From the IMG/VR virus record IMGVR_UViG_2925939204_000001: a DNA stretch of 64,000 bases; one strand, written 5' to 3'. This document shows positions 3,475-52,993 of this stretch, one piece after another (the first letter of the stretch is position 1; each line of letters opens with the position of its first letter). The notes below the pieces were generated by a model. The model had not been told where the DNA came from and searched no databases. It saw nothing but the letters and a program-made list of their open reading frames with translations. A program made the position numbers and the translations under genes. This DNA is from a virus (lineage: Duplodnaviria; Heunggongvirae; Uroviricota; Caudoviricetes).

Positions 3475-3490
3475 AATTTTCTAATATAAT
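3475..3490. promoter_or_regulatory. operator-like site (weak copy, TTTTCTAATAT)
   Basis: Variant of the recurring TTTTCTAACA motif, upstream of the 3565 gene. Confidence 0.3.
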
Positions 3491-3564
3491 CATCTTTTTA
3501 CCAGTCTATACAGTTTTAACATTCTCATTATCATCCCCTCGGTCATTTCCTGCCCGGGGGATTA

Positions 3565-3957
3565 ATGGAACAAATCAGCAGCGCAGAAATTGCGGATATC
3601 ATGATCAGGGCTGACTGCTATCTGACAGTCACTGAAATTACCACTCTCGCCAAAGAAAAATACCCTCATCTCCATGTTTCACGAGTAAGTGTAACTAACA
3701 TCATTCGTCATTTTGTTCGTTCAAGCAGGGCAATCTGTGAGCTGGATGATCGTGTGTATCCACGAAAATACTGGCTACATGGTCTAAACGGATATCAGTT
3801 CAAGGTGCGCGGGCGCACGCCTGAATACGGTAGCTTACTGGTTAAAAACTGTAGCAGGAAATCAGTCGAACAGGCGCGAAAAGAGCAACGAGAGCTGGTG
3901 GACATGGCGAATAAGCTGTGGAATGCCGCCGTTAAAAAGCGTGGTGTTGCTTTATGA
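3565..3957 (+). CDS. putative HTH regulator immediately upstream of pacA (Lpa-like by position)
   Basis: 130-aa ORF with HTH-like segment LTVTEITTLAKEKY; position corresponds to the late-promoter activator gene of P1-type phages; preceded by an operator-like site. Confidence 0.4.
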   Translation: MEQISSAEIADIMIRADCYLTVTEITTLAKEKYPHLHVSRVSVTNIIRHFVRSSRAICELDDRVYPRKYWLHGLNGYQFKVRGRTPEYGSLLVKNCSRKSVEQARKEQRELVDMANKLWNAAVKKRGVAL

Positions 3958-5318
3958 GTCTGGTTAATTGGGAGGAGCACCGCGCCCGCTTTATAGCGTT
4001 GCGTGAAGAAAAAGGGATCACTGTAAAGGAATACTGTGAGGAGCATGGCCTTAGCTTCAATACAGCCAGAAAGCATCTCAATATGAAAAAAAATGAGGTG
4101 CGGTCGCAGGTAAAGACAACAAAAAAAAGCACCAAATCACCTGAAAAAAAACGGGCGGGAAGAGCAACAAAAAAGCTGGAAGAGGGTGCAGAAAAAACAA
4201 AATTTACAGAAATTGACAATTCGCAGGGCGCAGGTTCTTTCCGAAGTATGCCGAGAAAGAAAACTTCGGATCATGAAAATAATGCGAATAATAACAATGA
4301 GATAAAAGAATCTGTCAGGAGATCATTGCGCGAAAAAATGGCGAAAATGATCCCCGAAGAAGATAAAAGCGCCCCAAAAATTGAGGGATCTTCTGCAATG
4401 ATCCCCGACGGTGCTGTGCAGCGTGCCACATTGCCCACTACGAATGTGGCTCGCGATATGATGAAGAACGGCGCAGAAGAACACCTGCGGTTAGCAATTC
4501 AAATGGCGCAAGAGCGCGCACTTCAGTATCAAAGCATTGTTGATCAGGAGGCCGAACGTCTACAGGCGGAAATAGACGCCTTGGGCGATAAAGAGCCAGA
4601 AGGAATGCACCCTGGGCAGCGCCTTCTCGGTCTAATCAGTGGCGCGGCCTACTACATGAATGATTTTATCAGTAGGTTGGCAGCTATATATCAGTCCGAA
4701 CAAAAGCTGCGACAGGGGGATGAAAAGCTTCGTCAGAGCGCTCGCCAGCAAGCATTCAAAGAGGCTGAGGCCAGAGAAAAACTCGAATTAGCACGCCTAC
4801 AGGCCGAACAGCGTGGCAAAGAGATTGAATATCGCATTGGCGCTGACGCACGCGCAGCCAGAGTTATCGCCGCCGCTATACGTATGCGTGAGCGCGAGGA
4901 ACTGGATGATATCGGTGTTGCTGAATACATCGAGCGCCAGGGTGTCAGCGTCCCGGCTATCCTCGCGGCGCGCGCGGCGAAAGCTATCACTCTTCTCGAA
5001 CCACCTGTTTCTGACGTCAATGATGTTGATGATGAACAGCTGGACAAAGAGGCAAGGGAGTTTGCAACGCTTCAGGCTAACCATCCGCAATGGCTGGCAG
5101 AGCGCCGGGCGGATGTGGCAACCATTGTTGAAGAATTGGGGTGCGGAGATTACGACCGCAATGGCGAGCGTAAAGCTGGAGAATTCGAGGCCAACGACGA
5201 AGAGCTGGATATTGACCCTTCGGCAACGGCTGAAATTTACGGTGATTATGATGTATCTGATGCAGGGTATGACGCCGGAGATGATGATATCGCGATAGAA
5301 CCGCCGGAGGATGATTAA
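3954..5318 (+). CDS. pacA: terminase small subunit PacA-like
   Basis: 454-aa ORF, N-terminus MSLVNWEEHRARFIALREEKGITVKEYCEEHGL (HTH-like), coupled to the large subunit; GATC-rich cluster inside 5' part. Confidence 0.7.
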   Translation: MSLVNWEEHRARFIALREEKGITVKEYCEEHGLSFNTARKHLNMKKNEVRSQVKTTKKSTKSPEKKRAGRATKKLEEGAEKTKFTEIDNSQGAGSFRSMPRKKTSDHENNANNNNEIKESVRRSLREKMAKMIPEEDKSAPKIEGSSAMIPDGAVQRATLPTTNVARDMMKNGAEEHLRLAIQMAQERALQYQSIVDQEAERLQAEIDALGDKEPEGMHPGQRLLGLISGAAYYMNDFISRLAAIYQSEQKLRQGDEKLRQSARQQAFKEAEAREKLELARLQAEQRGKEIEYRIGADARAARVIAAAIRMREREELDDIGVAEYIERQGVSVPAILAARAAKAITLLEPPVSDVNDVDDEQLDKEAREFATLQANHPQWLAERRADVATIVEELGCGDYDRNGERKAGEFEANDEELDIDPSATAEIYGDYDVSDAGYDAGDDDIAIEPPEDD

Positions 5319-6826
5319 TGGCTGGCGGGCGCAAGATTAAATGCGTCACCAGCGATCCACGCTGGCGCGATATGGTAATCAAATACCGCTACAACTTTAC
5401 CCAGGCTGTTGTCGATATTTTTGGGATGTTCCCCTCCCACCAGCAGCAGCAGATCATTCAGTCAGTGCAGGAAACGGGGAGTAGGACTACCGTCACGTCC
5501 GGACACGGAACGGGGAAGTCGTCCCTTACCGCGATGTTGCTGTTGATTTTTATGATCCTGTTCCCCGATGCCCGTGTCATCATTGTTGCTAACAAGATAG
5601 GCCAGGTAAAAACAGGCGTATTCAAATACGTTAAACAGTATTGGGCGAATGCAGTTAAGCGTCATGGGTGGTTGCAGACCTATTTTGTCCTCTCTGACAC
5701 CATGTTTTATGAGCGCTCCCGTAAGGGGATTTGGGAAGTTCTCTGCAAAGGTTATCGACTCGGCAACGAAGAAGCGCTGGCGGGGGAACACGCGGCACAT
5801 TTGCTTCTAATTCTGGATGAAGCATCTGGTATATCTGATAAGGCGATCGGCGTAATGACCGGTGCTCTTACTGAAGAAGATAACCGGATGTTGATGCTAT
5901 CCCAGCCAACAAGGCCAAGTGGTTATTTCTACGATTCGCACCATTCTCGAGCAAAAACCCCAGACAACCCGAAAGGGATCTGGACAGCAATTGTTCTTAA
6001 CTCGGAAGAATCACCGTTCGTCACACCACAATTCATCAAGCAGAAGCTTCTGGAATATGGCGGGCGCGATTCTATTGAGTACATGGTCAAGGTGCTTGGT
6101 CAGTTCCCACGAGAAATTAACGGCTATTTGCTTGGTCGTGATGAATGCGATCGCGCTGCTCGCCGCAAGGTGTTGTTGGAGAAAAACTGGGGATGGGTGG
6201 CAACGGCTGACGTTGGTAATGGGCGAGATAAGTCGGTCCTCAACATCTGCAAGGTATCTGGTCACAGGGATAAGCGGCGCGTTGTTAACTTTAAGGTAAT
6301 GGAGATGCCTGGCACTATGGACCCATTGGCCTTTGCTGACTTCATATATAACGAATGTACGCCGGAAAAATACCCGAATATAACAATCGCGGTTGATGCT
6401 GATGGTTTTGGTTCTGATACGTGTGCGCAGTTGGTGCGTCGTGGTGCGAACCCGGTACGTATTCGGTGGGGAAAACCCATGTTTGCGAACAAAGACAGGG
6501 AGCGATTTGTTAATCAGCGTGCCTACGCAAATATTATGGCGCGTGATGCCATAAAGTCAGGGCGTATGCGGATAGACAGTGACCCTAAAACGGCAGAGCA
6601 AGCGTCAAAAATCCCCTTTTTACTGAATGAAGAGGGGAAAATGGCGATGATGCGCAAAGAGCACATGCGGCAAAAGCTAAACATCAAATCGCCTGACCGA
6701 TGGGATACCTACTGCTTCACTATGCTGGTGGACTATGTGCCTGCTAATGAAGATATTGGTGCCGAAATGGCAACTTTCCGAGATCAGGTTCTGGCGGATA
6801 TCGAAATGCCGGCTCTGGATATATAA
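5318..6826 (+). CDS. pacB: terminase large subunit PacB-like (ATPase/nuclease)
   Basis: Walker A SGHGTGKS and Walker B LLLILDEAS motifs; 502 aa; overlaps pacA stop. Confidence 0.85.
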   Translation: MAGGRKIKCVTSDPRWRDMVIKYRYNFTQAVVDIFGMFPSHQQQQIIQSVQETGSRTTVTSGHGTGKSSLTAMLLLIFMILFPDARVIIVANKIGQVKTGVFKYVKQYWANAVKRHGWLQTYFVLSDTMFYERSRKGIWEVLCKGYRLGNEEALAGEHAAHLLLILDEASGISDKAIGVMTGALTEEDNRMLMLSQPTRPSGYFYDSHHSRAKTPDNPKGIWTAIVLNSEESPFVTPQFIKQKLLEYGGRDSIEYMVKVLGQFPREINGYLLGRDECDRAARRKVLLEKNWGWVATADVGNGRDKSVLNICKVSGHRDKRRVVNFKVMEMPGTMDPLAFADFIYNECTPEKYPNITIAVDADGFGSDTCAQLVRRGANPVRIRWGKPMFANKDRERFVNQRAYANIMARDAIKSGRMRIDSDPKTAEQASKIPFLLNEEGKMAMMRKEHMRQKLNIKSPDRWDTYCFTMLVDYVPANEDIGAEMATFRDQVLADIEMPALDI

Positions 6827-6853
6827 AGCCCCGCGATGCGGGGCCGGTTGTGA

Positions 6854-7891
6854 TTACCAGAGCTTCGCGGCGTACTGCGTTTGGGGGAATGTGTATCCGT
6901 AACGTTCTTCGATTGCTTTGCCGTATTTTTTACGAGCTTCATTCAGTTTAATGCCGGTCAGGTCGTCTCCAGAGGCCATCATTACGTCTAACAATTCCAG
7001 ATCCATTTTATCCAGCCTTGCCATTGCTTCACGTGATGTACGTATCTTACGCTCAATGATATGGCGAATAGCCGGATCGGCATCCTCCAGCATCTTAGCG
7101 GATTTCTGCTTAAGGCTTTCATTGCGAATATCGATGTTCCTTAAGATGTACGACTTCGCAACATAGCTTGGCTGGTGTTTTTCCAGGTCACGAACACGAT
7201 ATAAGTTAAAATCGCCGAGAAGGCTGCAAGGTACCGATTCGACGCCAGAATAAATTGTAATGCTCCGGCGTTCACCAACATTATTGACAACGGGGATCGT
7301 TGTCTTCGGTAGTCTTGCGAAAACCAATGCACCATGTGCGCCAACTCTAAAGCGAGAAAGGGCATTGCTGCCTTCGATGTTTGTTGTCAGCACAACATCT
7401 GTATATGCCTCTTTACGCGCCCGGTAGATCTCGCCTTCAGGCTCAGCTTCAAAGAAGCGCTGTTCTTCTTCAAGAGCACCTACGATTTGAGAAAAAACCC
7501 TATTTTTCAGGCTTTTCTTTATGATTTTGTCGTATTTTTTGAGCAATTGTTCACGTGTAAATGTACGTGTTGTTGTAGCGCTTTGCACAACAACATGCGT
7601 GCTTTGATTGGTGTCCTCAATGATGAATGGGATCGGAGAATATACAGACTCAACAATGTTCGACGCTTTGCCGTCGGCATCGCGACACATGTCAACGAAG
7701 GCTTTCCATTCAGCAAGACATTTTTCAGCTTCTTCTAATATGTTTTGGTCATGCGTTAATGCAACATGGCGGAATTCCTCGCCAGCATAACTGGTATCAT
7801 GGAAAACAGAGTTTGCGACCACCAGCTCTTTCCACCGTTCAGCGGTTTGCAGGAACCGTTTGTACTCTTTCTCGATCGACTTCTTACTCAT
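6854..7891 (-). CDS. hypothetical 345-aa protein in the position occupied by the c1 repressor gene in P1
   Basis: Complete ORF convergent with pacB, divergent from rox-dre; operator-like motif just upstream of its start; sequence itself not recognised. Confidence 0.5.
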   Translation of the reverse strand: MSKKSIEKEYKRFLQTAERWKELVVANSVFHDTSYAGEEFRHVALTHDQNILEEAEKCLAEWKAFVDMCRDADGKASNIVESVYSPIPFIIEDTNQSTHVVVQSATTTRTFTREQLLKKYDKIIKKSLKNRVFSQIVGALEEEQRFFEAEPEGEIYRARKEAYTDVVLTTNIEGSNALSRFRVGAHGALVFARLPKTTIPVVNNVGERRSITIYSGVESVPCSLLGDFNLYRVRDLEKHQPSYVAKSYILRNIDIRNESLKQKSAKMLEDADPAIRHIIERKIRTSREAMARLDKMDLELLDVMMASGDDLTGIKLNEARKKYGKAIEERYGYTFPQTQYAAKLW

Positions 7892-7906
7892 TATTCCTAC
7901 TCGATT

Positions 7907-7920
7907 TAGTTTTCTAACAT
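7907..7920. promoter_or_regulatory. operator-like site TAGTTTTCTAACAT
   Basis: Copy of the recurring motif, 16 bp upstream of the 6854..7891 start codon. Confidence 0.4.
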
Positions 7921-8101
7921 AAAATTACTATGACAAATTTATGTCGAATAACAGAGTGAGTAAAGGATAGAACTGTGATTTTTTGTCATCAATTTTAGAA
8001 AACCAACTGTATAAACCACACTTCGCAAATTAAAGACCATGAAGGCAACGTGTTACTGGTCAGAATCAATCTGTGATGGATTAAAAAAAATCGCCATTTT
8101 A

Positions 8102-8133
8102 TAACTTTAAATAATTGGCATTATTTAAAGTTA
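8102..8133. other. rox site-specific recombination target (Dre target)
   Basis: 14-bp inverted repeats TAACTTTAAATAAT / ATTATTTAAAGTTA around a 4-bp spacer TGGC; matches the published rox sequence in reverse orientation. Confidence 0.85.
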
Positions 8134-8285: not shown

Positions 8286-9314
8286 ATGAGTGAATTAATT
8301 ATCTCTGGCAGCTCCAGTGGTTTTCTGCGCAACATTGGCAAAGAGTACCAGGAGGCCGCAGAAAACTTTATGCGGTTCATGAATGACCAGGGGGCTTATG
8401 CGCCGAATACTCTGCGCGACCTCCGGTTGGTGTTTCATTCCTGGGCGCGCTGGTGTCACGCTCGCCAGCTTGCCTGGTTTCCGATCTCACCAGAAATGGC
8501 CCGCGAGTATTTTCTTCAGTTGCATGATGCCGATCTGGCTTCGACCACCATTGATAAGCACTATGCCATGCTTAACATGCTGCTTTCGCAATGTGGCCTC
8601 CCGCCGCTGTCGGACGATAAAAGTGTGTCTCTGGCCATGCGGCGCATCCGGCGCGAAGCGGCAACTGAAAAAGGCGAACGAACAGGCCAGGCTATACCGC
8701 TGCGGTGGGACGATCTGAAACTGCTCGACGTCCTGTTGTCCAGGTCAGAACGGCTGGTGGACCTGCGCAACCGGGCTTTTCTCTTTGTTGCATACAATAC
8801 CCTGTTGCGTATGGCTGAAATGTCCCGCGTGCGTGTTCGCGATCTGGAACAGACTGGTGACACTGTCACGCTACATATTTCACACACGAAGACAATAACG
8901 ACCGCCGCCGGGCTTGATAAGGTGCTTTCCCGTCGCACTACCGCTGTGCTGAATGACTGGCTGGATGTTTCCGGGCTTCGCGAACATCCTGACGCAGTGC
9001 TGTTCCCGCCGATACACCGTAGCAATAAGGCCAGGATCACGACAACGCCCCTTACTGCACCTGCAATGGAGAAAATATTCAGCGACGCCTGGGTGTTGCT
9101 GAATAAAAGAGATGCTACGCCAAACAAAGGAAGATACCGGACGTGGACCGGGCATAGTGCACGCGTCGGGGCCGCTATTGATATGGCTGAAAAGCAGGTG
9201 TCTATGGTGGAGATCATGCAGGAAGGAACCTGGAAGAAACCGGAAACACTTATGCGGTATCTTCGCCGTGGCGGCGTGTCTGTGGGGGCTAATAGCCGCC
9301 TGATGGATTCGTAA
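8286..9314 (+). CDS. dre: Dre tyrosine site-specific recombinase (Cre homologue)
   Basis: 342 aa, N-terminus MSELIISGSS...; Cre-family catalytic region with GHSARVGAA; adjacent rox site. Confidence 0.9.
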   Translation: MSELIISGSSSGFLRNIGKEYQEAAENFMRFMNDQGAYAPNTLRDLRLVFHSWARWCHARQLAWFPISPEMAREYFLQLHDADLASTTIDKHYAMLNMLLSQCGLPPLSDDKSVSLAMRRIRREAATEKGERTGQAIPLRWDDLKLLDVLLSRSERLVDLRNRAFLFVAYNTLLRMAEMSRVRVRDLEQTGDTVTLHISHTKTITTAAGLDKVLSRRTTAVLNDWLDVSGLREHPDAVLFPPIHRSNKARITTTPLTAPAMEKIFSDAWVLLNKRDATPNKGRYRTWTGHSARVGAAIDMAEKQVSMVEIMQEGTWKKPETLMRYLRRGGVSVGANSRLMDS

Positions 9315-9317: not shown

Positions 9318-9331
9318 AAATTTCTAACACA
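9318..9331. promoter_or_regulatory. operator-like site AAATTTCTAACACA
   Basis: Copy of the recurring motif between dre and the next ORF. Confidence 0.4.
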
Positions 9332-13378: not shown

Positions 13379-13379
13379 T

Positions 13380-15300
13380 GTGCGCCGGGAGACCGGTAGA
13401 GATCAAGGGGTGAAAGTCCCCGACCATTGAAGGACCAGCAATCCACAAGGTCCCCGAGTCATGCGTTGCATACCGCGAGGTATGGGGCGAAGCGTTGACA
13501 GGGGTGTTGACAGGCCAGCCATTGAGCCACGAAATGTATATTAAATTACCGGGTGCCGACGTTGTACTGTTAACGGAAGGCAACATCATAGGGTGCGATA
13601 CTGCGAGTGCCACATGGACCCGGCGGGGTCTGAGACCCTGGCATGTCAATACGATCTCTACGCGGGAACCGGGAGATCTCCCCTCTGACCATCTGCCAGT
13701 GTCGGAGATGGCCCGCACCGGGAAGACGAGGAGTCATAGCCGGTGATGTACGGAGAGGAGAAGTCGGACTCGCTCATAGTAGCGGCGAAGCAGGCGAACA
13801 ACCCGAAAGGAGCGGAGTCAGTGGAGCGAAGGAGCGGGGCCAAGGGGAACGCGGAACAGCCACACATGCGCCGGACACAGAGCCGGGAAAGCATGTCACA
13901 GAGGCTGTCACGCGTGCGGGAAGCTGCGAAGCAGCAGAAGAAAGAACGGTTTACAGCATTGTTCCACCTGCTGACAGTCGAAGCACTGGAAGCCGCATTC
14001 CTCTCCCTGAGCAGGAAAGCGGCCGCGGGAGTGGATGGCATCAGGTGGATGGACTACGCCGGAAACATGAAGAACAACATAACAGATCTGCACCGGAGGC
14101 TACATCAGGGCAGCTACAGGGCGCAGCCCGGCAGGCGTCACTACATCCCAAAAGCGGATGGAAAACAACGCCCGCTCGGCATCGCCTCGCTGGAGGACAA
14201 GATCGTCCAGTATGCGCTGGTGAAAATCCTGAACGCAGTCTATGAAAACGACTTTATGGGGTTCTCATACGGGTTCAGACCCGGGCGAAACCAGCACGAT
14301 GCACTGGACGCACTGGCCACAGGGCTGGTACGCACTAACGTAAACTGGGTACTGGATGCCGACATCAGTCAGTTCTTCGACAGGGTGAGCCACGAATGGC
14401 TGATCAGGTTCACAGAGCATCGGATCGGCGACCGGAGGGTAATCAGGCTCATACGTAAGTGGCTCACAGCCGGGACGTCGGAGGAGGGTCAATGGCGAGC
14501 AACGGAGGAAGGCACCCCACAGGGTGCGGTCATCTCACCGCTGCTGGCAAACATATACCTCCACTACGTCTTCGATCTGTGGGCGCATCAGTGGCGACGT
14601 CGCTATGCCACAGGCAATGTGGTAATGGTCAGATACGCCGATGACATCGTCATCGGGTTCGACAAACGATACGATGCCCGGCGCTTCCGTATAGCCATGC
14701 AGCGCAGACTGAGGGAGTTCGGACTCACGGTTCACCCGGAGAAAACCCGTCTGATGGAGTTCGGCCGCTTCGCTGCCGAAAACCGTGCCATCAGGGGAAA
14801 AGGCAAACCAGAAACGTTCAACTTCCTCGGGTTCACGCACATCAGCGGGAAAGATCGCAACGGCAGGTTCATGCTGATACGAAAGACCCGCCGGGATCGG
14901 ATGACGGCAACTCTGAAAGCCATCAAAGACGGTCTGCGAAGGCGCTGGCATTACTCAATCCCCGAACAGGGAAAATGGCTCAGGAGAGTGGTTCAGGGAT
15001 ACCTGAACTATCACTCGGTACCGGGCAACTTCCCCACCATGCAGAAGTTCAGGACACACGTAACAAACCTCTGGCGCCGGGCGCTCAGGCGCAGGAGCCA
15101 GAAGGATGATACGACCTGGACGAAAGCAAACAAACTGGCAGCCGCATGGCTACCAAGGGTTCGGGTTCTTCATCCATGGCCTGTGGAGCGGTTCACCGCC
15201 AGACACCCGAGGCAGGAGCCCGGTGCGTAAATCGCGCACGCCGGGATCTGTGCGGGGGGTATCCGGTAACGGGTATCCCTACCGCGACATACATTGAAAA
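13380..15300 (+). mobile_element. group II intron (bacterial, ORF in domain IV); 3' boundary approximate
   Basis: 5' end GTGCGCC; internal RT/maturase ORF; 34-nt domain V-like hairpin with GUAA tetraloop and 2-nt bulge at 15252-15285 after the ORF. Confidence 0.7.
13743..15230 (+). CDS. group II intron-encoded reverse transcriptase/maturase
   Basis: RT motifs including GTPQGAVISPLLANIYL and YADD; C-terminal maturase region; no Cys-rich HNH endonuclease domain visible. Confidence 0.9.
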   Translation: MMYGEEKSDSLIVAAKQANNPKGAESVERRSGAKGNAEQPHMRRTQSRESMSQRLSRVREAAKQQKKERFTALFHLLTVEALEAAFLSLSRKAAAGVDGIRWMDYAGNMKNNITDLHRRLHQGSYRAQPGRRHYIPKADGKQRPLGIASLEDKIVQYALVKILNAVYENDFMGFSYGFRPGRNQHDALDALATGLVRTNVNWVLDADISQFFDRVSHEWLIRFTEHRIGDRRVIRLIRKWLTAGTSEEGQWRATEEGTPQGAVISPLLANIYLHYVFDLWAHQWRRRYATGNVVMVRYADDIVIGFDKRYDARRFRIAMQRRLREFGLTVHPEKTRLMEFGRFAAENRAIRGKGKPETFNFLGFTHISGKDRNGRFMLIRKTRRDRMTATLKAIKDGLRRRWHYSIPEQGKWLRRVVQGYLNYHSVPGNFPTMQKFRTHVTNLWRRALRRRSQKDDTTWTKANKLAAAWLPRVRVLHPWPVERFTARHPRQEPGA

Positions 15301-24542: not shown

Positions 24543-24576
24543 TATGTTAGAAAACTAAAATCAATGTTCTAACACG
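24543..24576. promoter_or_regulatory. paired operator-like sites (TATGTTAGAAAACTAAAAT and TGTTCTAACAC)
   Basis: Two copies of the recurring motif in opposite orientation, upstream of the 23507..24502 gene. Confidence 0.4.
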
Positions 24577-29193: not shown

Positions 29194-29230
29194 TGTGTTA
29201 GAAAATCAATTTTGAATATCTAACAGTTTT
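29194..29230. promoter_or_regulatory. paired operator-like sites in the divergent promoter region between the pmg operon and ref
   Basis: TGTGTTAGAAAATCAAT and ATATCTAACAG copies of the recurring motif. Confidence 0.4.
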
Positions 29231-29852: not shown

Positions 29853-29863
29853 TTTTCTAACAT
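29850..29863. promoter_or_regulatory. operator-like site TAGTTTTCTAACAT
   Basis: Copy of the recurring motif just downstream of ref. Confidence 0.4.
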
Positions 29864-30456
29864 TTTAAGTTGAATTGAAAAACTCTCCGATGTACATTCA
29901 CTACCGATTGGCACACCGGTCAACTTTTTGAGACAAACTGTTTAGTTTTTCGTATTATTGCCTCCGCCATACCTATGGCGGTGCAATATAGGTGGCTGAA
30001 AAGCCCCCGTTGACTCACGGTGTTCCAGCCTTTATTGCGCCGCCACCAGACCGTGGAACAGTCGATGGCGGCTCCGAAAGCAAGGAGTCACAACACTATG
30101 AACAACTACAGTCTTTTCCCATCACTCGTCGTCCACCACTCACGCGATAATCTGCATTCTTTACTCGCGCTGGGGGTGTCAAAATGACTGTTCGCTACCT
30201 CAACTTTCAAATCAAGAACATTACTGGCGGTTGCTATGACTGGTTTGTCACTCTCGGAAAAGAAGTGATCACCGGGAAGCTGGATGAAGTGAAAGCTAAA
30301 GCAATGGCCTACGCCTGCAAGCAAGCCCGGAAGAAATCCGCCAAAGCATAAAATACTGACTGTTGCGCCCTGGCATTATCGTGGGGTATATTTCTACGGC
30401 ACCTTAGAAAAACGGGTGCCGGGATTGGAACCCCGGATAATGCAAAAGGCGACACA

Positions 30457-30478
30457 GACGCCGAAAGCGTCTTTTTTT
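30457..30478 (+). terminator. Rho-independent terminator
   Basis: GACGCCGAAAGCGTC hairpin followed by TTTTTTT. Confidence 0.6.
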
Positions 30479-30479
30479 G

Positions 30480-30640
30480 TGTCATGCCATCGCACAGCCA
30501 TACGTAGCGTTTAGCTCAGAGATCAATGGTAGTGCTGGCTGGGCTGCCGAAAGGCAGGCCGGTTCCCTTTTGCGCCGGTAGTTCCAACCCAGTCAGTGCT
30601 ACCGCCATTGAGATTGGAACCTCACGCGGTAGCTCCTTAA
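30480..30640 (+). ncRNA. putative c4-like antisense RNA / immI leader region
   Basis: Non-coding leader upstream of an icd-ant pair with short mutually complementary elements (GTTCCAAC at ~30579 and TTGGAAC at ~30613) near the icd RBS; boundaries not determined. Confidence 0.3.
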
Positions 30641-30663: not shown

Positions 30664-30879
30664 ATGGCTACTACCCCTACCCCAACTCATTCTGAATTTA
30701 TCTGGCGTTTCTATTCCTGCCAAAAACACCTCTATATCTGCGTCATGGCTGCTACCGAAGCAGAAGCGCGCTCATACCTTCCCGAAGAACCCTGCATTTT
30801 TGCTGCTCGCTTCACTCTTGATGCGATGGAGATCCTCAATTACTGGAATCTGCCGATGAACTGCGTGGAGGTGCACTGA
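30664..30879 (+). CDS. Icd-like small protein (71 aa)
   Basis: Small ORF directly upstream of and coupled to the antirepressor gene; paralogue of 51308..51523. Confidence 0.5.
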   Translation: MATTPTPTHSEFIWRFYSCQKHLYICVMAATEAEARSYLPEEPCIFAARFTLDAMEILNYWNLPMNCVEVH

Positions 30880-31820
30880 TGAATCTGTCCATCTCTCAAA
30901 AAGCGACAATGACCAGTATTGAGATCGCGGAACTGGTAGGTAAGCGTCATGATAATGTGAAGCGTACCATTGAAGTATTAACTAAAGGTGGTGTCATTCA
31001 ATTTCCTCAAATTGAGGAAATTGAAAATAAACAATCAGTTGGCCCTCGTCGATTTTCCAAGGCTTACATCTTTGAAGGCGAACAAGGCAAGCGTGACAGT
31101 ATCATTGTCGTCGCACAGCTTTCTCCCGAATTTACCGCCCGGCTGGTGGACCGCTGGCGCGAACTGGAGAATGCCCGGGTACAGTTAAAATCAAAAGCCG
31201 AAATCCTGGCTGAAATGGCGCAAATGCATCTTGAGCATGAACGCCGGATCAACGCCGTAAATGCCCAGGTAGCCGAGGTATCAGCACAAGTATCGATGGT
31301 CGCTGAAACACTCGAGCAAATAAAGAAGGGCAATATTCCGGAAGGCTACATTGGCTACCGCCAGCTGGCTGCGAAATGTGGCCTGACTGAAGCCAAATGC
31401 CGAAACCTGGTCAACGCTTACCGGATTCCCACCGATACGCATGAGTTTTTAACTCCCGATGGTTTGCTTGCGCGACGCTCCATTGTGGCCCTGGCCCCCT
31501 TCCGGAAAGCCTTTAAGCAGGTGATGTCGGAGGCAGAACCACGCAATAAACGCTGGTATCATCCAAAGATGGGGATGTTTCAGGCAATCCACCATCCTGT
31601 GCCTGAAAGCCCAAAGGATAATCTGTCACTACATACCGCCAGAGAGAAGATCAGGACTGGATACGCAACAGTGTGTCGTCGTTCTTCCTGGCCTGAAGGT
31701 ATATGGGTGTGGCCCGAAGGTGGATCACGAAAGCACTGGCGCACCATCCGTGACGGGAAAATCCATGCTATTGATTTAGCTCCAGAGGATGTTATTGCTA
31801 TGGACTGGATTGTTAGTTAA
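30879..31820 (+). CDS. antirepressor-like protein (Rha-type N-terminal domain, shared Ant C-terminal domain)
   Basis: N-terminus TSIEIAELVGKRHDNVKRTIEVL resembles phage Rha regulatory domain; C-terminal ~210 aa near-identical to 51523..52521. Confidence 0.6.
   Translation: MNLSISQKATMTSIEIAELVGKRHDNVKRTIEVLTKGGVIQFPQIEEIENKQSVGPRRFSKAYIFEGEQGKRDSIIVVAQLSPEFTARLVDRWRELENARVQLKSKAEILAEMAQMHLEHERRINAVNAQVAEVSAQVSMVAETLEQIKKGNIPEGYIGYRQLAAKCGLTEAKCRNLVNAYRIPTDTHEFLTPDGLLARRSIVALAPFRKAFKQVMSEAEPRNKRWYHPKMGMFQAIHHPVPESPKDNLSLHTAREKIRTGYATVCRRSSWPEGIWVWPEGGSRKHWRTIRDGKIHAIDLAPEDVIAMDWIVS
31185..31820. repeat. ~635-bp direct repeat, copy 1 (partner at 51887..52521)
   Basis: Near-identical DNA across the 3' two-thirds of both ant genes. 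Confidence 0.85.
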
Positions 31821-33224: not shown

Positions 33225-33492
33225 GTAAACAAAATGAAGTTTTATGTTACAAAAACAATCAACTACATCAACATGATTTAGGCCAAATTTCGGTCAAAAA
33301 ATAAAATCCACAAAAAGTGGTTGACACTATTTTGGAAATCACAAACTGCACATAATCCATCGCGCTAACGGCTCCCGTTGAAGGTTCTTTTGACGATTAA
33401 CTTTCAGCCGAAGCGCGGTAGGGAGTCATAACGCCAAAGCAGGCCGCCATGTGCGGCCTTTTTTTGTATCCGTCATCCGTGGAGGAAGGACA

Positions 33493-34146
33493 ATGGAAAA
33501 GATCGCAATATTCAGCCTGACCACCAGCAAGCCTCAAATGCTCACTGCAATACTGAAAGACGGTGCTCTCATTATTAACGAAGTAAAACCCCTTCCCGCG
33601 TCAGCATTGGAGCAAAAGCAAAAAATTCCTCCAGCCATAGCAGCCCTGCGGAAAAGCAAATTTAAGGTACTGGTAGACGAAATTACGCCAACGATCTCCG
33701 CTGGCACCGGAGCAAGCCAGGTGACTCTCAAGACCCGTCATGCCGATGGCAGAGCAGCAATCATCGTCGGGATGGAAAGATACAGAGAGTTAAAACTCCA
33801 GAAGCTATTATCCCTGCCGCAAAATAACAAAGGTGCTTTCGAAATCCCCGACTCTATCGTTGATACCGAATACAACGGTAACGGAGAAGAAGTCTACAGG
33901 GTGAACTGGCAGGATATCAGGCCGGAGCATATTCTGATGATCCTGTGTTGCTACGCGACCGTATACCACAACGTTGCCAGTGCGGATTACGTAGAGCAGA
34001 TGACCGGTACAGTCGATAAAGAGCAAAAAACAGGCATACTCGCTTCGTTCCTTTCCATTATTGGGCATGAAAAAGTTAAAGCAGGCACCTCCCAGCCAAA
34101 GTCACTGGCTGGGAAAGAAGTTGATGAAGATACCGTGATACTTTGA
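33493..34146 (+). CDS. hypothetical protein
   Basis: ORF with GGAGGAAGG RBS before the ATG at 33493. Confidence 0.5.
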   Translation: MEKIAIFSLTTSKPQMLTAILKDGALIINEVKPLPASALEQKQKIPPAIAALRKSKFKVLVDEITPTISAGTGASQVTLKTRHADGRAAIIVGMERYRELKLQKLLSLPQNNKGAFEIPDSIVDTEYNGNGEEVYRVNWQDIRPEHILMILCCYATVYHNVASADYVEQMTGTVDKEQKTGILASFLSIIGHEKVKAGTSQPKSLAGKEVDEDTVIL

Positions 34147-34474
34147 TCACATTAGTAGCTTTGTTAACTCCCTCAATACCAGGTAGAAGAGTAACAAAAA
34201 TATTGACGCGAGTATTTGAGTGGTCAATGAAGCGTTCATAAACAGATCAATTAGCATTAATAATTCGAAGATAACATCCATGTCATTCACTCCGTTTAAT
34301 TTTTAATCTAATGCCAGCAAATGAAGCTGGCCCCCGCATAAAGATTAATGAAAGTCACTTGTCACCAGTGAGGGGATTTATGAACCACATCCCCCTGAAC
34401 TGGTGGCCTGTCTGTTTCTCGCATTTCACACCCTGCATACAGTTTCCCCCAGGTTATGACTGAGAGGCTTTGTT

Positions 34475-37942: not shown

Positions 37943-38104
37943 TAGTCATTTGATCCTCCGTGATGATTACCGAATGCCATAACTATAGCGCACCGTTGCA
38001 CTGTGCGCAAGTGCATTTTATGAATTCCCCCTCCTTCATCCAAAATCACAATCTCCCGAAAATCTTCCTTTCGATACCTGACAGATCGACCTTTGAGGAT
38101 GCTT

Positions 38105-41294: not shown

Positions 41295-41304
41295 AAAATG
41301 CACC

Positions 41305-41346
41305 CATTTGTGTTAGATAATTAATATGTATTTTCTAACACAAATG
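41305..41346. promoter_or_regulatory. inverted pair of operator-like half-sites (CATTTGTGTTAGA ... TCTAACACAAATG)
   Basis: Perfect 13-bp inverted repeat with 16-bp AT-rich spacer directly upstream of hrdC. Confidence 0.5.
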
Positions 41347-41353
41347 GTGAGAC

Positions 41354-42259
41354 ATGAGATCAGTCGCTTTCAAAAATATCTTCATCTATCGTCTTTCACG
41401 CGAAGTTAGCTGGGATACTGCAGAAGTAAATGCAGCCCTTAGCAAGTTTGTGTTTACCCCATGCGGTTCTCAGGATATGGCTAAAGCTGGTTGGACCTCC
41501 GTTCTTGGTGACAACCTCACCCATGAATACCAGGGTTTTCTTCTGATACAGCATAAACGAGAGGAAAAAATCCTACCTTCTCAAGTGCTCAAAGAAGAGT
41601 TACAGAAAAAAATCCTGACACTTGAAGAAGAGCAAGACAGAAAGCTGAAGAAGACCGAAAAAGATTCGCTGAAGGATGAAGTGCTTCACTCTCTTCTTCC
41701 TCGTGCTTTCACGAGAAAATCACTCGCCAAAATCCTGATCGACCGCAGCAACCATCTGGTATTCGTTGAGGCAAGCAGCGCCAAAAAGGCAGAGGACCAG
41801 CTGGCTTTATTGCGAAAATCGCTCGGCAGCCTGCCTGTCATTCCATTCACACCACGCGAACCGCTGGAAATTACAATGACCGAGTGGTTTAAAAACGGCT
41901 TCCCTGCCGGATTTACAGCAGGTGAAGACGCCACATTAAAGGGTCTGCTCGATAATGGTGGTGCCGTTCGCTGCAACAAAGTTGATCTACAGTCCGACGA
42001 GATTATGTCTCACATTGAGGCGGGGAAAGTAGCTACGACCGTTGCAATTAACTGGATGGACCGCGCGTCGTTCAGAGTCAACGATGATATGAGTATCAAA
42101 GCCCTGACATTCTGTGATGATCTCTATGACCAGAACGACGATATCGACCGGGAGGATGTAGCACAACGATTTGATGCTGATTTCGTGCTCTTTACGGGCG
42201 AATTATCTGCACTGTTTAACGCGCTGGTGGAGGCCATTGGCGGTGAAGCAGAACGTTAA
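41354..42259 (+). CDS. hrdC: RdgC homologue (recombination-associated protein)
   Basis: Collinear similarity to E. coli RdgC, e.g. [60 protein letters not shown]. Confidence 0.85.
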
Positions 42260-44399
42260 CCTTCGATATGGTTCAGTTTGCAGTGGAATTGAAGCCGCGA
42301 GCATTGCCTGGGAACCGTTGGGTATGCGTCCGGCGTGGTTTGCTGAAATTGAGCCTTTTCCATCTGCCGTTCTTGCGCACCGCTGGCCTCATATCGCCAA
42401 CCTTGGCGATATGACAAAACTTGCCAAAAAAGTCCTGGCTGGGGAAATCGAATCCCCTGATGTGCTCGTCGGGGGAACACCTTGTCAGGCATTCAGTATC
42501 GCGGGATTACGTGGTGGGCTTGATGATGAGCGCGGCGCGCTAACTTTGAAGTATGTGGAGCTTGCAAATGCAATTGACGACAAACGGTCTGAGTCCTTCC
42601 TCAAACCGACAGTTATCGTCTGGGAAAATGTCCCAGGAGTCCTGTCATCGGCAGATAACGCCTTCGGATGTTTCCTTGCCGGATTGGCTGGAGAAGATGC
42701 ACCATTTGAACCAGGTGATCGACCTGAATCAGGAAAAAGTAACGCGTTCTGGCGGTGGGATGGCAAAACCGGTTGCCATGCTCCAAAGTGGCCGCAGTGT
42801 GGTTGTATTTATGGACCGCAGCGAAAGGTGGCCTGGAGAATACTTGATGCCCAATACTTCGGAGTGGCACAACGACGCCGACGCGTGTTTGTTGTCGCAA
42901 GTGCTCGAACAGACCTCGATCCCGCAACGGTACTTTTTGAGTTCGAAGGCGTGCGCCGGGATATTGCGCCGAGCAGAGGCGAGGGGAAGGAAGTTGCCGG
43001 AAATGTTGGAAATGGCATTAAAAGCGGGAGCCATTGGGATAACCCTGTAAATCCTCACCCGACACTTGCCCGATCGCACAATACCGGCGGGACGGGTGCA
43101 AGCAACCAGGAGATTTTTTCACAGCGCGGAAGTGGGCTTGTCGGTGCTTACCGGATGGTAGCATTTGGTGAGTATGCGGATGATGAGGCGGCTTCCACGG
43201 TCAAGGCCAGAGATTTTAAGGATGCAACCGACCTGGCTGTTTTTGACAGTGCGAACGTCGGAGTGGCAGTACGTCGCTTAACGCCTGTCGAGTGCGAACG
43301 CCTGCAGGGCTTTCCTGACGGGCACACGTTGATCCCTACGGAAAAGCGTAAAAAAGTTTCTTCAGATGAACTGGCATACCTTCGCAATCACTATCCAGAT
43401 TTAAGCGAAGAAGAGGCCGCGATGCTTGCAGCTGACGGACCGCGTTACAAAGCGATCGGCAACAGCATGGCAGTTCCTGTTATGCAATGGATAGGGTGTC
43501 GCATTCTTGCGACCGTAGCGGATAAACAGCAAAAAACAATAAATACCATTACCTACACAAGAAAACTCCGGACTCCGGATGAATATGAACGCCCAATATT
43601 CAAATGGGTAGGCGGTAAATTCTCAGAGTTGCCTACAGTGCTTGAGCATCTACCACACGGCAAGCGGTTAATAGAACCATTCGTTGGTGGCGGTTCCGTA
43701 TTTACGAATGCAGGATTTCGCCACAACCTGCTTAATGATATTAACGGTGACCTGATTAACTTCTATCAGACATTGCAGCGAGAGGGACATTCGCTCGTCA
43801 CGCTGGCATATAGTTTTTTCAAAAATTACAACAACGCTGACGCTTACCTCGAAGTGCGCGAGGCATTTAACAGAGGAAAGTATGACCAGCTACATCATGC
43901 TGCCGCCTTTTTGTACCTTAATCGGCACTGTTTTAATGGCGTAACGCGGTACAACCAAAATGGCGAGTTCAACGTGGGGTATGGCAAATACAAAGCGCCC
44001 TACTTCCCACATGCAGAGATGGAGGCATTTTTGGCTGATGACGTACTCAAAAACACGTCCTTTGTATCAGGTGACTTTGCTGGCGTCATCGAGGCGGCTG
44101 GTGAAGGCGATGTGATTTTTTGCGATCCGCCGTATGAACCGCTGCCGGATACAGAAGGGTTTACCAGTTATTCAGGAAATAGCTTCCGTTTCGACGAACA
44201 GAAACGGCTGGTATCTCTATTGGTGGAAGCCCACCAGCGCGGCGCTAAGGTAGTGATAACAAATAGTGGTGCGCCAAACATCCGTGAACTATATGAACGA
44301 AACGGGTTTAAAGTACATCATATGGCAGCCAGACGGTCGGTGTCCTGCAAGGCGTCAACACGTGTAGTTGCTAACGATATAATTGCAATAATGAAGTAA
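42171..44399 (+). CDS. dmt: bifunctional DNA methyltransferase Dmt (N-terminal C5-cytosine MTase, C-terminal Dam-like N6-adenine MTase)
   Basis: C5-MTase motifs GTPCQAFS and ENVPG; Dam-type DPPY motif in C-terminal half; real start probably near GTG 42243 just before the hrdC stop. Confidence 0.85.
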
Positions 44400-47931: not shown

Positions 47932-47937
47932 ACCTCG

Positions 47938-49090: not shown

Positions 49091-49160
49091 AATTTAACTC
49101 TCCGTTTGAATGACGAAATAACAAAGTGATGACAATAGGAGGATAACCAGGAGGTGAAGA

Positions 49161-50251: not shown

Positions 50252-50306
50252 CAACACCACTTAGGCACACAAAAGGATGTAAATTGGCACATGTTTAACA
50301 CCAAAA

Positions 50307-50940: not shown

Positions 50941-50966
50941 GCTTCACAAAATCTATATAGCTATTT

Positions 50967-51003
50967 TATGTTAGAAAAATAATTTGAATTTTCGAACATA
51001 AAC
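50967..51003. promoter_or_regulatory. paired operator-like sites (TATGTTAGAAAAATAAT and variant TTTTCGAACAT)
   Basis: Copies of the recurring motif upstream of the second immI-like module. Confidence 0.35.
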
Positions 51004-51134
51004 AATAAAATAAATCATCAAAAATTTGATGTTGATCTTCCATGTTTTCAGGCTTATATTCACGCCGTTGCAGCAAATTCTGCGACCGGGTTTAGCAGCC
51101 TGAATGTACATGCGGACAACCGCAGATATCCGAT

Positions 51135-51300
51135 ATTGCGGTATTTTTGTGTCCGTAAAACCATGTTACGCCCGAATTATGGTGGGGCGTGATGGGGAGG
51201 CTTCGGCCTGCTGGTTTCATGTACGCCAGTCTGCTAACCCCGTCACGTCCTGCCACCCGTTTAGCAGCGGGTAGCAGGTTGTTAAACCTGTACATGAGGC
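51135..51300 (+). ncRNA. putative c4-like antisense RNA / immI leader region (second copy, different sequence)
   Basis: Same architecture as 30480-30640: hairpin with T run at ~51101-51130, then leader with self-complementary TGTACA-containing elements near the icd RBS. Confidence 0.25.
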
Positions 51301-51307
51301 CGTAACT

Positions 51308-51523
51308 ATGGTTAATGCCAATCCTTGCGCACGCCCGGAATTTATCTGGCGCTTTTATTCCTGCACAAAACACACCTACATCAGCGTAATGGCAGCTACT
51401 GAGGCTGAAGCGCGTTCATTTCTTCCTACAGATCCATGCATTTTTGCCGCTCGCTTTAAACTCGATGCTCTGGACGTTTTGACCTACTGGAACCGCCCAA
51501 TGAACTGCGTGGAGGTGCATTAA
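51308..51523 (+). CDS. Icd-like small protein (71 aa)
   Basis: Paralogue of 30664..30879 (shared EFIWRFYSC...VMAATEAEARS...PCIFAARF...NCVEVH). Confidence 0.5.
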   Translation: MVNANPCARPEFIWRFYSCTKHTYISVMAATEAEARSFLPTDPCIFAARFKLDALDVLTYWNRPMNCVEVH

Positions 51524-52521
51524 TGGACGCAGTAACTATCAATAACAAACCATTCCCGACTCTCGAATATAAAAATCAGCGTGTAGTGACCTTTGAGATG
51601 ATTGATGAGGTGCACGAACGTGTTGATGGGGCAGCCAGGGGAACATTTAAGCGAAACAGAAGTCGTTTCATTGAAGGGGTGGATACTTATGTTATTGATT
51701 ATTCTGAAAAGGGCTTTTTAAGCCCATTTGGAATTGATGTCCCCCCGCGCGGTTTGCGCGTGTTCACTGAGTCCGGCTATCTGATGATTGTTAAGTCATT
51801 CAATGACGATCTGGCCTGGCAAGTGCAACGTGAGCTGGTAAACAGCTATTTTCGTATTAAGCAATTAATACCGGAGCACTCACCGCTAAAATCAAAAGCC
51901 GAAATCCTGGCCGAAATGGCGCAAATGCATCTTGAGCATGAACGCCGGATCAACGCCGTAAATGCCCAGGTAGCCGAGGTATCAGCACAAGTATCGATGG
52001 TCGCTGAAACACTCGAGCAAATCAAGAAAGGCAATATTCCGGAAGGCTACATTGGCTACCGCCAGCTGGCGGCGAAATGTGGCCTGACTGAAGCAAAATG
52101 TCGCAACCTGGTCAACGCTTACCGGATTCCCACCGATACGCATGAGTTTTTAACTCCCGATGGTTTGCTTGCGCGACGCTCCATTGTGGCCCTGGCCCCC
52201 TTCCGGAAAGCCTTTAAGCAGGTGATGTCGGAGGCAGAACCACGCAATAAACGCTGGTATCATCCAAAGATGGGGATGTTTCAGGCAATCCACCATCCTG
52301 TGCCTGAAAGCCCAAAGGATAATCTGTCACTACATACCGTCAGAGAGAAGATCAGGACTGGATACGCAACAGTGTGTCGTCGTTCTTCCTGGCCTGAAGG
52401 TATATGGGTGTGGCCCGAAGGTGGATCACGAAAGCACTGGCGCACTATCCGGGACGGGAAAATCCATGCTATTGATTTAGCGCCAGAGGATATTGTTGCT
52501 ACGGACTGGATTGTTAGTTAA
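51523..52521 (+). CDS. antirepressor-like protein (KilA-N/Bro-N-type N-terminal domain, shared Ant C-terminal domain)
   Basis: N-terminal ~110 aa unrelated to 30879..31820; C-terminal ~210 aa near-identical. Confidence 0.6.
   Translation: MDAVTINNKPFPTLEYKNQRVVTFEMIDEVHERVDGAARGTFKRNRSRFIEGVDTYVIDYSEKGFLSPFGIDVPPRGLRVFTESGYLMIVKSFNDDLAWQVQRELVNSYFRIKQLIPEHSPLKSKAEILAEMAQMHLEHERRINAVNAQVAEVSAQVSMVAETLEQIKKGNIPEGYIGYRQLAAKCGLTEAKCRNLVNAYRIPTDTHEFLTPDGLLARRSIVALAPFRKAFKQVMSEAEPRNKRWYHPKMGMFQAIHHPVPESPKDNLSLHTVREKIRTGYATVCRRSSWPEGIWVWPEGGSRKHWRTIRDGKIHAIDLAPEDIVATDWIVS
51887..52521. repeat. ~635-bp direct repeat, copy 2 (partner at 31185..31820)
   Basis: Near-identical DNA with a handful of substitutions. 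Confidence 0.85.
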
Positions 52522-52556
52522 TTACTGTTGCCCCGGCCTGTCCGGGGCTTTCGTGA

Positions 52557-52961
52557 CTAAAAATCTGTTCGCTGTCGCCATGCGTTTTTTAACTCAGGAA
52601 TATCCGCCATTTCAATTAACTTGCGAAGTCCAGCACTGACTTTCCCATTGCCAACCATAGCAAGCCAATCTCTTACTGCTTTCGGCATGTAGAGCGTTGC
52701 AGTTACCGGCTCTTCAACCCTGGCAGGACATCCGCATACAGGCCATTTAACTGATTCCATAACTTCGGATGCCGGGGTGAGGGCGGGGACATTGAGTATA
52801 TCTCTACCAGAAAACTGGATAACGATCCGTTCAGCGAGCGAGAGTATCTCACTTTCGGCAAGAATTGATGCCAACTGCGCCTCAACAAGAAAGCGACTTG
52901 TTGTGTTCAGAGAGTGGCTCTTAGCGCCATTTTTATACGAAACAAAGATTCGATACGCCAT
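52557..52961 (-). CDS. hypothetical protein (134 aa)
   Basis: Complete ORF; operator-like motif just upstream of its start. Confidence 0.45.
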   Translation of the reverse strand: MAYRIFVSYKNGAKSHSLNTTSRFLVEAQLASILAESEILSLAERIVIQFSGRDILNVPALTPASEVMESVKWPVCGCPARVEEPVTATLYMPKAVRDWLAMVGNGKVSAGLRKLIEMADIPELKNAWRQRTDF

Positions 52962-52974
52962 AACTCTAATGATT

Positions 52975-52993
52975 TGTGTTAGAAAACTAAAAT
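52975..52993. promoter_or_regulatory. operator-like site TGTGTTAGAAAACTAAAAT
   Basis: Copy of the recurring motif in the divergent region between 52557..52961 and 53120..54817. Confidence 0.4.

Follow-up and report, generated by a model that had tools for sequence, protein, structure and literature searches.

The stretch analyzed here (hereafter, the window) comprises 64,000 nucleotides of a tailed phage of the class Caudoviricetes, IMG/VR record IMGVR_UViG_2925939204_000001. Its nearest relative is Escherichia phage D6, with 97-98% identity over long stretches (megablast), and the gene names used below were transferred from the D6 annotation. According to a blastn map, the window is a mosaic D6 relative, mostly colinear with D6 in reverse orientation, in which three segments, at roughly 13.4-23.5, 42.3-43.6, and 50.9-52.6 kb, are substitutions or insertions with respect to D6. 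The genes lpa, pacA, pacB, c1, rox, and dre follow one another in this order, with c1 placed between pacB and the Cre-like recombinase gene, as in P1. A short asymmetric sequence with the core TTTTCTAACA is found upstream of c1 and recurs across the window, in all at about 15 sites spread over 10 intergenic loci (Table 1). The analyses described here make it very likely that this motif serves as the operator for the D6-type C1 repressor, the product of 6854-7891.

The c1 product is 100% identical to C1 of D6, whereas its similarity to C1 of P1 is limited to 21% identity over 240 aa (BLASTP, E 2e-8), and the Phage_P7_repressor_C1 family (PF27008) was found on its homologs. The identity to D6 C1, the domain on the homologs, and the P1-like synteny all support the proposal of a first-pass annotation, made from the letters alone, that the product of 6854..7891 is the repressor candidate. 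D6-type C1 is about 60 aa longer at the C terminus than P1 C1, and no relative in the PDB was found by sequence. Unlike in P1, the interval upstream of c1, about 200 bp up to rox, is too short for a coi gene. In PLSDB, 148 plasmids carry a C1 match (tblastn), with identities falling into classes of ~100, 90, 80, 70, 68, and 24-30%. Neither of the two D6 GenBank records contains annotated operators or promoters.

Seven exact copies of TTTTCTAACA are present in the window against an expectation of 0.20, and at least seven copies were obtained in 0 of 100 shuffles. With up to one mismatch allowed, the number of copies rises to 15, of which all but one are intergenic although the window is ~89% coding (greedy open reading frame [ORF] mask); the sole coding copy lies inside glnS. 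Counted by locus, the ratio is 10 intergenic to 1 coding (binomial p ~1e-9). An unseeded count of all 9-mers over 43 intergenic segments also ranked the motif word, TTTCTAACA, first (8 segments), with all 8 of its window copies intergenic, and yielded no other recurrent intergenic word able to serve as a C1 operator. A candidate second word, TGATGGATT, was rejected due to its modest enrichment (32 copies against 19.5 expected at one mismatch) and inconsistent placement. A 24-nt matrix built from 13 sites, with the consensus aAATTAgTTTTCTAACAyAAAa, extends the motif to about 17-24 bp and scores its training sites at 21-32 bits, apart from the background. The best-scoring site outside the training set, 29216+ (13.5 bits), is the partner of 29196; an unrelated coding match at 36276 reaches 13.4 bits. 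Every intergenic site listed in the first-pass annotation exists, with its coordinates starting 2-3 nt before the core, including the weaker variants placed at 3475 and 33243, which correspond to the one-mismatch cores 3477+ and 33245-.

Table 1. Predicted operators and late promoters, genes, and RNA elements of the window, together with D6 sites matched to P1 operators
Feature	Coordinates	Strand	Score	Core or evidence	Location or description	P1 counterpart
Operator A	3477-3486	+	26.9 bits	TTTTCTAATA, one mismatch	78 nt upstream of lpa	Olpa
Operator A, degenerate inverted partner	3457-3466	-			20-bp offset	
Operator B	7910-7919	+	28.9 bits	exact TTTTCTAACA	19 nt from c1 ATG, pointing away from c1	Oc1/Ocoi group
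Operator B2 (weak)	7993-8002	-		TTTTCTAAAA, one mismatch	co-oriented with c1; abuts predicted -35 (TTGATG-17-TATCCT)	Oc1/Ocoi group
Operator C	9320-9329	+	26.4 bits	ATTTCTAACA, one mismatch	directly 3' of dre stop	
Operator pair D, minus core	24545-24554	-	29.2 bits	exact	upstream of pdcB	
Operator pair D, plus core	24565-24574	+	23.3 bits	one mismatch	upstream of pdcB	
Operator pair E, minus core	29196-29205	-	30.5 bits	exact	heads divergent operon ending in ppp	Oppp
Operator pair E, plus core	29216-29225	+	13.5 bits		faces ref	Oref
Operator F	29853-29862	+	26.6 bits	exact	directly after ref stop codon; upstream of immI module 1	Omat; Oc4
Operator G (weak)	33245-33254	-	21.3 bits	TTTTGTAACA, one mismatch	35 nt upstream of GTG (33209) of simB-like gene	
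Operator pair H, minus core	41311-41320	-	28.9 bits	one mismatch	upstream of hrdC-dmt; palindrome 41304-41347	Odmt
Operator pair H, plus core	41331-41340	+	27.1 bits	exact	upstream of hrdC-dmt; palindrome 41304-41347	Odmt
Operator pair I, minus core	50969-50978	-	31.6 bits	exact	upstream of immI module 2	
Operator pair I, plus core	50989-50998	+	25.2 bits	one mismatch	upstream of immI module 2	Oc4
Operator J	52977-52986	-	30.6 bits	exact	15 nt upstream of orf52, divergent from capsid gene	
Coding core copy	45631			one mismatch	inside glnS	
D6 sites (outside window)	D6 10315 and 9066				by pmgR/pmgS	OpmgR
D6 site (outside window)	D6 21260				before second icd-ant	Oc4
D6 site, weak (outside window)	D6 22460		16.1 bits		before repL	OrepL
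D6-type late promoter	33336-33356	+		AAATCACAnACT-N3-TAnnnT	upstream of mat	
D6-type late promoter	38043-38063	+			gene 7 operon	
D6-type late promoter	53050-53070	+			capsid gene 23	
D6-type late promoter	61688-61708	+			pmgB-sit	
lpa	3565-3957	+	E 5e-57	PF25716 BPP1_LPA	late-promoter activator; 31% identity to P1 Lpa	
pacA	3954-5318			D6 annotation transfer		
pacB	5318-6826			D6 annotation transfer		
c1	6854-7891	-			345 aa, predicted master repressor	
rox	about 8102-8133			D6 annotation transfer		
dre	8286-9314			D6 annotation transfer	Cre-like recombinase	
ref	29274-29852			PF16786		
mat	33492-34146			D6 annotation transfer		
hrdC	41354-42259			PF04381	RdgC	
Capsid gene 23	53120-54817			D6 annotation transfer		
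C4 antisense RNA, immI module 1	30522-30609	+	76.7 bits	Rfam RF01695		
icd, immI module 1	30664-30879	+			3' of C4 RNA	
Rha-type antirepressor, immI module 1	30879-31820	+		PF09669		
a1b1 target element, immI module 2	51054-51106	+		RF03163	5' of C4 RNA	
C4 antisense RNA, immI module 2	51175-51260	+	71.7 bits	Rfam RF01695		
icd-like ORF, immI module 2	51308-51523	+			3' of C4 RNA	
ORF6N antirepressor-like protein, immI module 2	51523-52521	+		PF10543		

The sites show a regular architecture. As stated in the first-pass annotation, several of them form inverted pairs: four clear divergent pairs (24545/24565, 29196/29216, 41311/41331, and 50969/50989) have an identical core offset of 20 bp, and a degenerate fifth pair lies upstream of lpa. 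The inverted repeat upstream of hrdC is indeed perfect, but its arms are 14 bp long (41304-41317/41334-41347) rather than the 13 bp given previously; operator pair H, which it contains, lies 13 nt upstream of the gene. Divergent pairs with the 20-bp offset are confined to the D6 subclade, with none in P1, Leclercia, Citrobacter, or Pantoea. A link between these pairs and the C-terminal extension of C1 was considered and dropped because the Leclercia, Citrobacter, and Pantoea C1 proteins are extended as well, yet their elements lack the pairs. All sites except the c1-proximal one face the downstream gene, as do nearly all annotated P1 operators, and one half of the inverted pairs faces no gene.

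In an alignment of the c1-upstream regions of four elements with C1 proteins 44-100% identical, the mean column identity is 62%, and the sole run of 10 invariant columns, TGTTAGAAAA, coincides with operator B. The four D6-clade elements share one layout, with a co-oriented site at the candidate -35 and an inverted site 16-19 nt from the ATG, the two being ~90 bp apart in all four. The position of operator B2 is occupied by TTTTCTAAAC in plasmid pK91 and by perfect TTTTCTAACA in two further elements, L014 and L015. In the lpa-upstream region, the elements with C1 relatives at 51% and 44% identity retain TCTAA.A and the partner CGTTA unchanged. The site that follows the recombinase gene (operator C), which in the window precedes the orf117..dut..isaA operon, is present also in pK91, L014, L015, Leclercia, Citrobacter, and Pantoea, and sites upstream of rdgC are found in the latter three elements too. 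Pair E sits between the divergent orf88..ppp operon and ref; downstream of operator F are small ORFs, an isrK-like RNA, the C4 RNA, icd, and ant. Operators G and J are kept in D6, with 21.2 and 28.6 bits, respectively.

To compare this arrangement with that of P1, we extracted the P1 operators and late promoters from the curated record AF234172, in which the operators are ATTGCTCTAATAAATTT-like, in agreement with the consensus given in the first-pass annotation. P1 contains 22 dispersed asymmetric 17-bp C1 operators, and its C1 controls RepL and Lpa (PMC8546580). Like the ImmC system of P1 and P7, the D6-type system includes a homologous repressor gene in the same genomic slot and many single asymmetric sites scattered over a ~90-kb plasmid-prophage. 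In both, these sites lie upstream of lpa, c1, ref, c4-icd-ant, hrdC-dmt, pmgR/S, and repL and are co-oriented with transcription. Thus, as had been surmised, the distribution mirrors the P1 C1 regulon, with sites located at annotated P1 operator positions (Table 1); the match extends to operator F, given that P1 Omat overlaps the ref stop. Operon content suggests two further equivalents, namely P1 Ossb (ssb-isaA) for 9320 (isaA operon) and P1 OpmgT (pmgT-pmgU) for 24545 (pdcB..pmgU). The sequences themselves are mutually exclusive, so that the core has diverged from the P1 operator as proposed. No P1-type operator was detected in the window or D6, where the P1 matrix reaches at most 12.9-13.0 bits versus 17.8-26.9 bits in P1, and no D6-type site was detected in P1, where the D6-type matrix reaches at most 14.3 bits versus 21-32 bits in the window. 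Only the TCTAA center is common when the matrices are aligned, with the flanks differing between TTT-TCTAA-CA (D6-type) and TGC-TCTAA-TA (P1). Because TCTAA alone is shared and the P1 operator sequence is otherwise unmatched, these observations point to a P1-like system with a different immunity specificity. D6 is heteroimmune to P1. The two systems differ also in that D6-type pairs diverge at a 20-bp offset, whereas Oban, the one divalent operator in the P1 annotation, consists of two convergent copies overlapping by 6 bp, and in that the window contains two immI (C4-icd-ant) modules. In P1 itself (L005), TGTTAGATAA occurs at ~42891-42920 (record 89891-89920), immediately 5' of Olpa. It is identical to the plus-strand reading of a D6-type half-site (window 41311-41320) and, together with the P1 operator, makes up TTAGA-N9-TCTAA, perhaps as a remnant of paired sites at lpa.

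The identical unbiased intergenic word count was then applied to each representative element. In P1, the positive control, the top intergenic 9-mer, TGCTCTAAT, is the known operator core. The top 9-mer is TTTCTAACA in D6 as in the window, ATTCTAAGG in both Leclercia pE1_003 and the Citrobacter plasmid, and ATTCTAAAT in Pantoea pPSP-26e (7 segments, tied with the terminator-like AAAAAAGCC), where the untied 8-mer core, ATTCTAAA, is found in 10 segments. All elements have copies upstream of c1, right after the recombinase gene, and upstream of ref and rdgC/hrdC. The C1 proteins of D6 and pK91 are 68% identical, those of Leclercia and Citrobacter 49%, and that of Pantoea is 34-35% identical to the latter two; D6 C1 shows 27-29% identity to those of Leclercia, Citrobacter, and Pantoea, and P1 C1 ~20% to all. 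Within the D6 clade, at C1 identities of 68% (pK91), 51% (L014), and 44% (L015), TTTTCTAACA or TCTAACA is kept at the c1, lpa, and post-recombinase positions. All five matrices align best in one orientation, centered on TCTAA. Overall, there are four motif classes across four C1 clades and nine elements, and specificity tracks the repressor lineage. The P1-like site positions, the change of the motif with the C1 clade in five other phage-plasmids, and the absence of P1-type operators are all consistent with the first-pass proposal of a master repressor with diverged specificity.

One of these comparators deserves a separate remark. The pK91 sequence (L007, NZ_CP029965.1, Salmonella Typhi) is a D6-like remnant at 53942-78973 of a conjugative IncFIB plasmid that also carries BREX, qnrS1, and blaTEM-1. 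The remnant retains hot, humD, phd-doc, isaA, dut, the recombinase gene, and c1, with pacB truncated by IS26, and therefore is usable as a comparator for the c1 region alone, not for the whole regulon. Given that its c1-proximal operator is intact, the repressor gene may persist without its phage.

An element that recurs between genes of a P1-family phage could instead be a late-promoter box, that is, the D6-type equivalent of the Lpa-dependent -22 box of P1. A changed box would be expected given that Lpa is just 31% identical to that of P1; moreover, a TAnnnT-like hexamer follows several sites, and the site upstream of orf52 overlaps a P1-like ATGTGATTT-N5-TAGTTT arrangement. A far better candidate for the late element is available, however. 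The second most widespread intergenic word of D6 is the 8-mer TGTGATTT, the copies of which, when read in gene direction, take the form AAATCACAnACT-N3-(T/C)AnnnT. Such boxes are located upstream of orf16 (lysis), prt-pro, ddrB, R-S-U, pmgB-sit, gene 23, the gene 7 operon, and mat, loci that include orthologs of P1 LPmat, LP23, LPsit, LPs, and LPpro. The window contains four copies of the AAATCACAnACT box with at most one mismatch, all on the plus strand and all upstream of late operons; in the D6 records, the box is unannotated. Because these boxes head the late operons, the late element is a sequence other than TTTTCTAACA. The TTTTCTAACA sites, for their part, precede early and immunity genes, lpa and c1 among them, show no similarity to the -22 box, and form inverted pairs in which one half faces no gene; their spacing to the -10 is not fixed. 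The earlier assessment that a late-promoter element is the less likely reading was thus sound, and we consider this identity very improbable. An equally slight chance attaches to a site for a DNA-binding protein of the E. coli or Salmonella host, such as a nucleoid protein or Tus. The site is AT-rich, and the c1-proximal copy, read toward c1 (TATGTTAGAAAACTAAA), loosely resembles TerB (TATGTTGTAACTAAA). This resemblance is no better than chance matches elsewhere in the window, and the operators lack the strictly conserved Ter core GTTGTAAC. Furthermore, P1 uses the same hosts yet lacks such a site, and among Enterobacterales elements the motif varies with the C1 clade, which is not how a host-factor site would behave.

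Somewhat less remote, but still quite unlikely, is the possibility that the motif is a shared early-promoter core, or the site of another phage regulator coinherited with c1, and that C1 binds elsewhere. The sites are co-oriented with genes, some lie 13-21 nt from a start codon, and many hold TAGTTT or TAACAT, hexamers of the TAnnnT type, at the 5' edge or in the core, respectively. P1 operators likewise contain promoter hexamers, however, such as TTGCTC and TCTAAT, and the positions of the motif match those of mapped P1 C1 operators. The word counts offer no alternative intergenic sequence for C1, and the half-sites of the pairs that face away from genes are difficult to reconcile with a promoter core. 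The register is informative as well. In a relaxed sigma-70 scan, the core is in the spacer between a TTGAnn -35 and the -10 upstream of pdcB, orf88, ref, and immI-2, whereas at the post-ref and simB-like loci it covers a TAACAT -10 with TTGAnn 16 nt upstream. For instance, predicted -35 TTGATT and -10 TATTGT flank the minus core of pair D, and the plus core of pair I is bracketed by predicted TTGAAT-16-TAAAAT. Annotated P1 operators overlap the -35, the spacer, or the -10, with the register varying likewise; such variability fits a repressor operator, not a promoter element. Several points weigh against the identification of the motif as the C1 operator. The case for D6 C1 operators is built entirely on sequence. 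The sigma-70 predictions near the sites are weak (8-9/12 matches in the relaxed scan), and a scan with the strict consensus around the sites is nearly empty. The c1-proximal site is inverted relative to all others, and for the orf52 and simB-like loci no P1 equivalent is evident. Because Lpa, too, varies from lineage to lineage (31% identity), covariation alone does not separate C1 from Lpa; the position of the sites and the separate late motif do. There is also a formal possibility that another coinherited regulator reads the motif.

If the motif is the C1 operator, the following scheme can be proposed. In the plasmid-prophage state, C1 would occupy the ~15 asymmetric sites in 10 promoter regions and block sigma-70 RNA polymerase, with cores placed in the -35/-10 spacer or over the -10 causing promoter occlusion. 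Its predicted targets are lpa, ref, the two c4-icd-ant antirepressor modules, hrdC-dmt, the early operons pdcB..pmgU and orf88..ppp, the orf117..isaA operon, the simB-like gene, and orf52. The two convergent sites ~90 bp apart that bracket the c1 promoter and leader suggest autoregulation. The C1 protein of P1 is monomeric when bound to its asymmetric site. At the five loci with divergent half-sites, the 20-bp offset, equal to two helical turns, would bring two C1 molecules to the same DNA face, probably resulting in cooperative, tighter repression. Inactivation of C1 by the antirepressors would then allow expression of lpa, and Lpa would turn on late promoters with the AAATCACAnACT-N3-TAnnnT form, making lpa the key target that couples the loss of C1 to late expression. 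We infer C1 binding, its stoichiometry, promoter occlusion, cooperativity, and autoregulation from the arrangement of the sites.

Structural modeling suggested a possible relationship of C1 beyond phages. An AlphaFold2 model of C1 built from a 9-sequence alignment (predicted local distance difference test [pLDDT] 78.8) retrieved only E. coli Tus in a Foldseek search of the PDB, with E 7e-7 to 2e-5 and probability 1.00 over 273-306 columns and the next match at E 0.05. With a second model, for which the alignment comprised 14 sequences of greater diversity (pLDDT 84.9, predicted template modeling score 0.53, five of five models >80), the search again retrieved only Tus (E 2e-7 to 3e-6 over 303-311 columns; next match E 0.17). 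The Tus fold consists of two alpha/beta domains joined by DNA-binding interdomain beta-strands. The template modeling scores between the C1 models and Tus are low (0.32-0.43), possibly because the domains are oriented differently or because the relationship is looser. At the sequence level, the signals are weak but in line with the models. Clustering at 50% identity groups the C1 family members among 1.84 billion proteins into 83 clusters. An hhalign comparison of 73-88-sequence C1 profiles with E. coli Tus (P 0.003-0.007) aligns C1 86-196 with Tus 146-268, pairing R113/E114, L140/E143/F147, P151, and R157/R159 of C1 with R183/D184, L212/E215/I219, P223, and K229/K231 of Tus, respectively. All of these C1 residues are invariant in the close-homolog alignments A3/A4, apart from P151, for which identity in the window protein is recorded. 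With the shallow 9-sequence profile, hhalign found nothing. Among the sub-threshold Pfam matches of 73 members, PF05472 ("Ter") appears in 2, tied with Enkurin for the most matches; the best of these has E 0.012, and they fall well short of the gathering score. The window protein has no match to it. Pairwise phmmer comparison of Tus with the C1 family is borderline against shuffles, and no significant pairwise sequence similarity is detected. The resemblance of TerB to the c1-proximal operator does not exceed chance in the window and was discarded as a candidate link.

Both systems have an asymmetric site, and both place a site immediately upstream of the gene for the protein itself: TerB ends 10 nt before the tus ATG (autoregulation), and the distance between operator B and the ATG of c1 is 19 nt. 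Both families also are largely confined to Enterobacterales. They differ in that the predicted role of C1 is repression of transcription at many promoters. With these models at hand, the chances of homology between C1 and Tus at the level of the fold appear about evenly balanced, and the fuller proposal, that the C1 repressors (PF27008) and Tus are homologous, monomeric Tus-fold proteins reading asymmetric sites, is tentative, with slightly less than an even chance of being correct. Nothing relevant on a Tus/C1 link was found in the full text of the open literature. If such homology holds, c1-operator and tus-TerB, along with the dispersed Ter sites, would be two versions of one ancestral system, and Tus could have arisen through domestication of a phage-plasmid repressor, or vice versa. 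Complexes of C1 with its operators might then impede polymerases or helicases in an orientation-dependent manner, a property that would account for the strict orientation of the sites. Such a fold would also provide the first structural frame for the long-studied C1 and a testable clue to how the Tus-Ter fork trap arose.

Systems in which a C1 master repressor acts through dispersed operators are classical. To our knowledge, the D6-type operator consensus, the site list, the pair architecture, the clade-specific series, and the D6-type late box are new; the motif string was not found in the full text of the open literature, although an earlier description in D6 papers is possible. D6-type phage-plasmids are common in E. 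coli and Salmonella, and with the operator set and the late box, their early and late regulons, and thus heteroimmunity with P1, become directly annotatable. The fixed TCTAA center with flanks that change across C1 clades constitutes a natural series of putatively orthogonal repressor/operator pairs, which could be used to dissect how a non-helix-turn-helix repressor family reads DNA or to build orthogonal switches.

Several additional features of these elements were observed. A possible further D6-type late box is located at 49116-49136 (+). In P1, the late promoters have the form AAGTGACTT-N4-TANNNT (AF234172); as a general late element of the window, AAGTGACTT was rejected, given its single perfect copy at 34342-34360 (-) and the different D6-type box. 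This copy, AAGTGACTT-tcat-TAATCT, is followed by a hairpin and a hydrophobic 44-aa ORF (34146-34280, -), equivalent to D6 orf77, which runs convergently into the 3' end of mat and may encode a small late membrane protein. In L015 (Logan contig SRR12267734; C1 44% identical), a second intergenic word, AAGTGTGAAG, occurs in four segments, near 334, 4456, 4868, and 9561, and may be the late-promoter box of that lineage. Pfam searches support the assignments of Lpa, Ref, RdgC/HrdC, one Rha-type antirepressor, and one ORF6N protein in the window. The antirepressor accordingly differs in type between the immI modules, the first of which (30399-30609) is preceded by an isrK-like RNA (RF01394), and the second of which is placed elsewhere than in D6. 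No C1-type operators were identified within window 13.4-23.5 kb, a ~10-kb stretch largely missing from D6 that contains group II intron domains at 13413-13638 (+; Rfam RF02005, 186.6 bits) and, downstream of these, an ORF of 495 aa (13743-15230, +). Finally, five tRNA genes (Rfam RF00005) are clustered at 549-2032 (+) and adjoin tciA/tciB homologs, as in D6.

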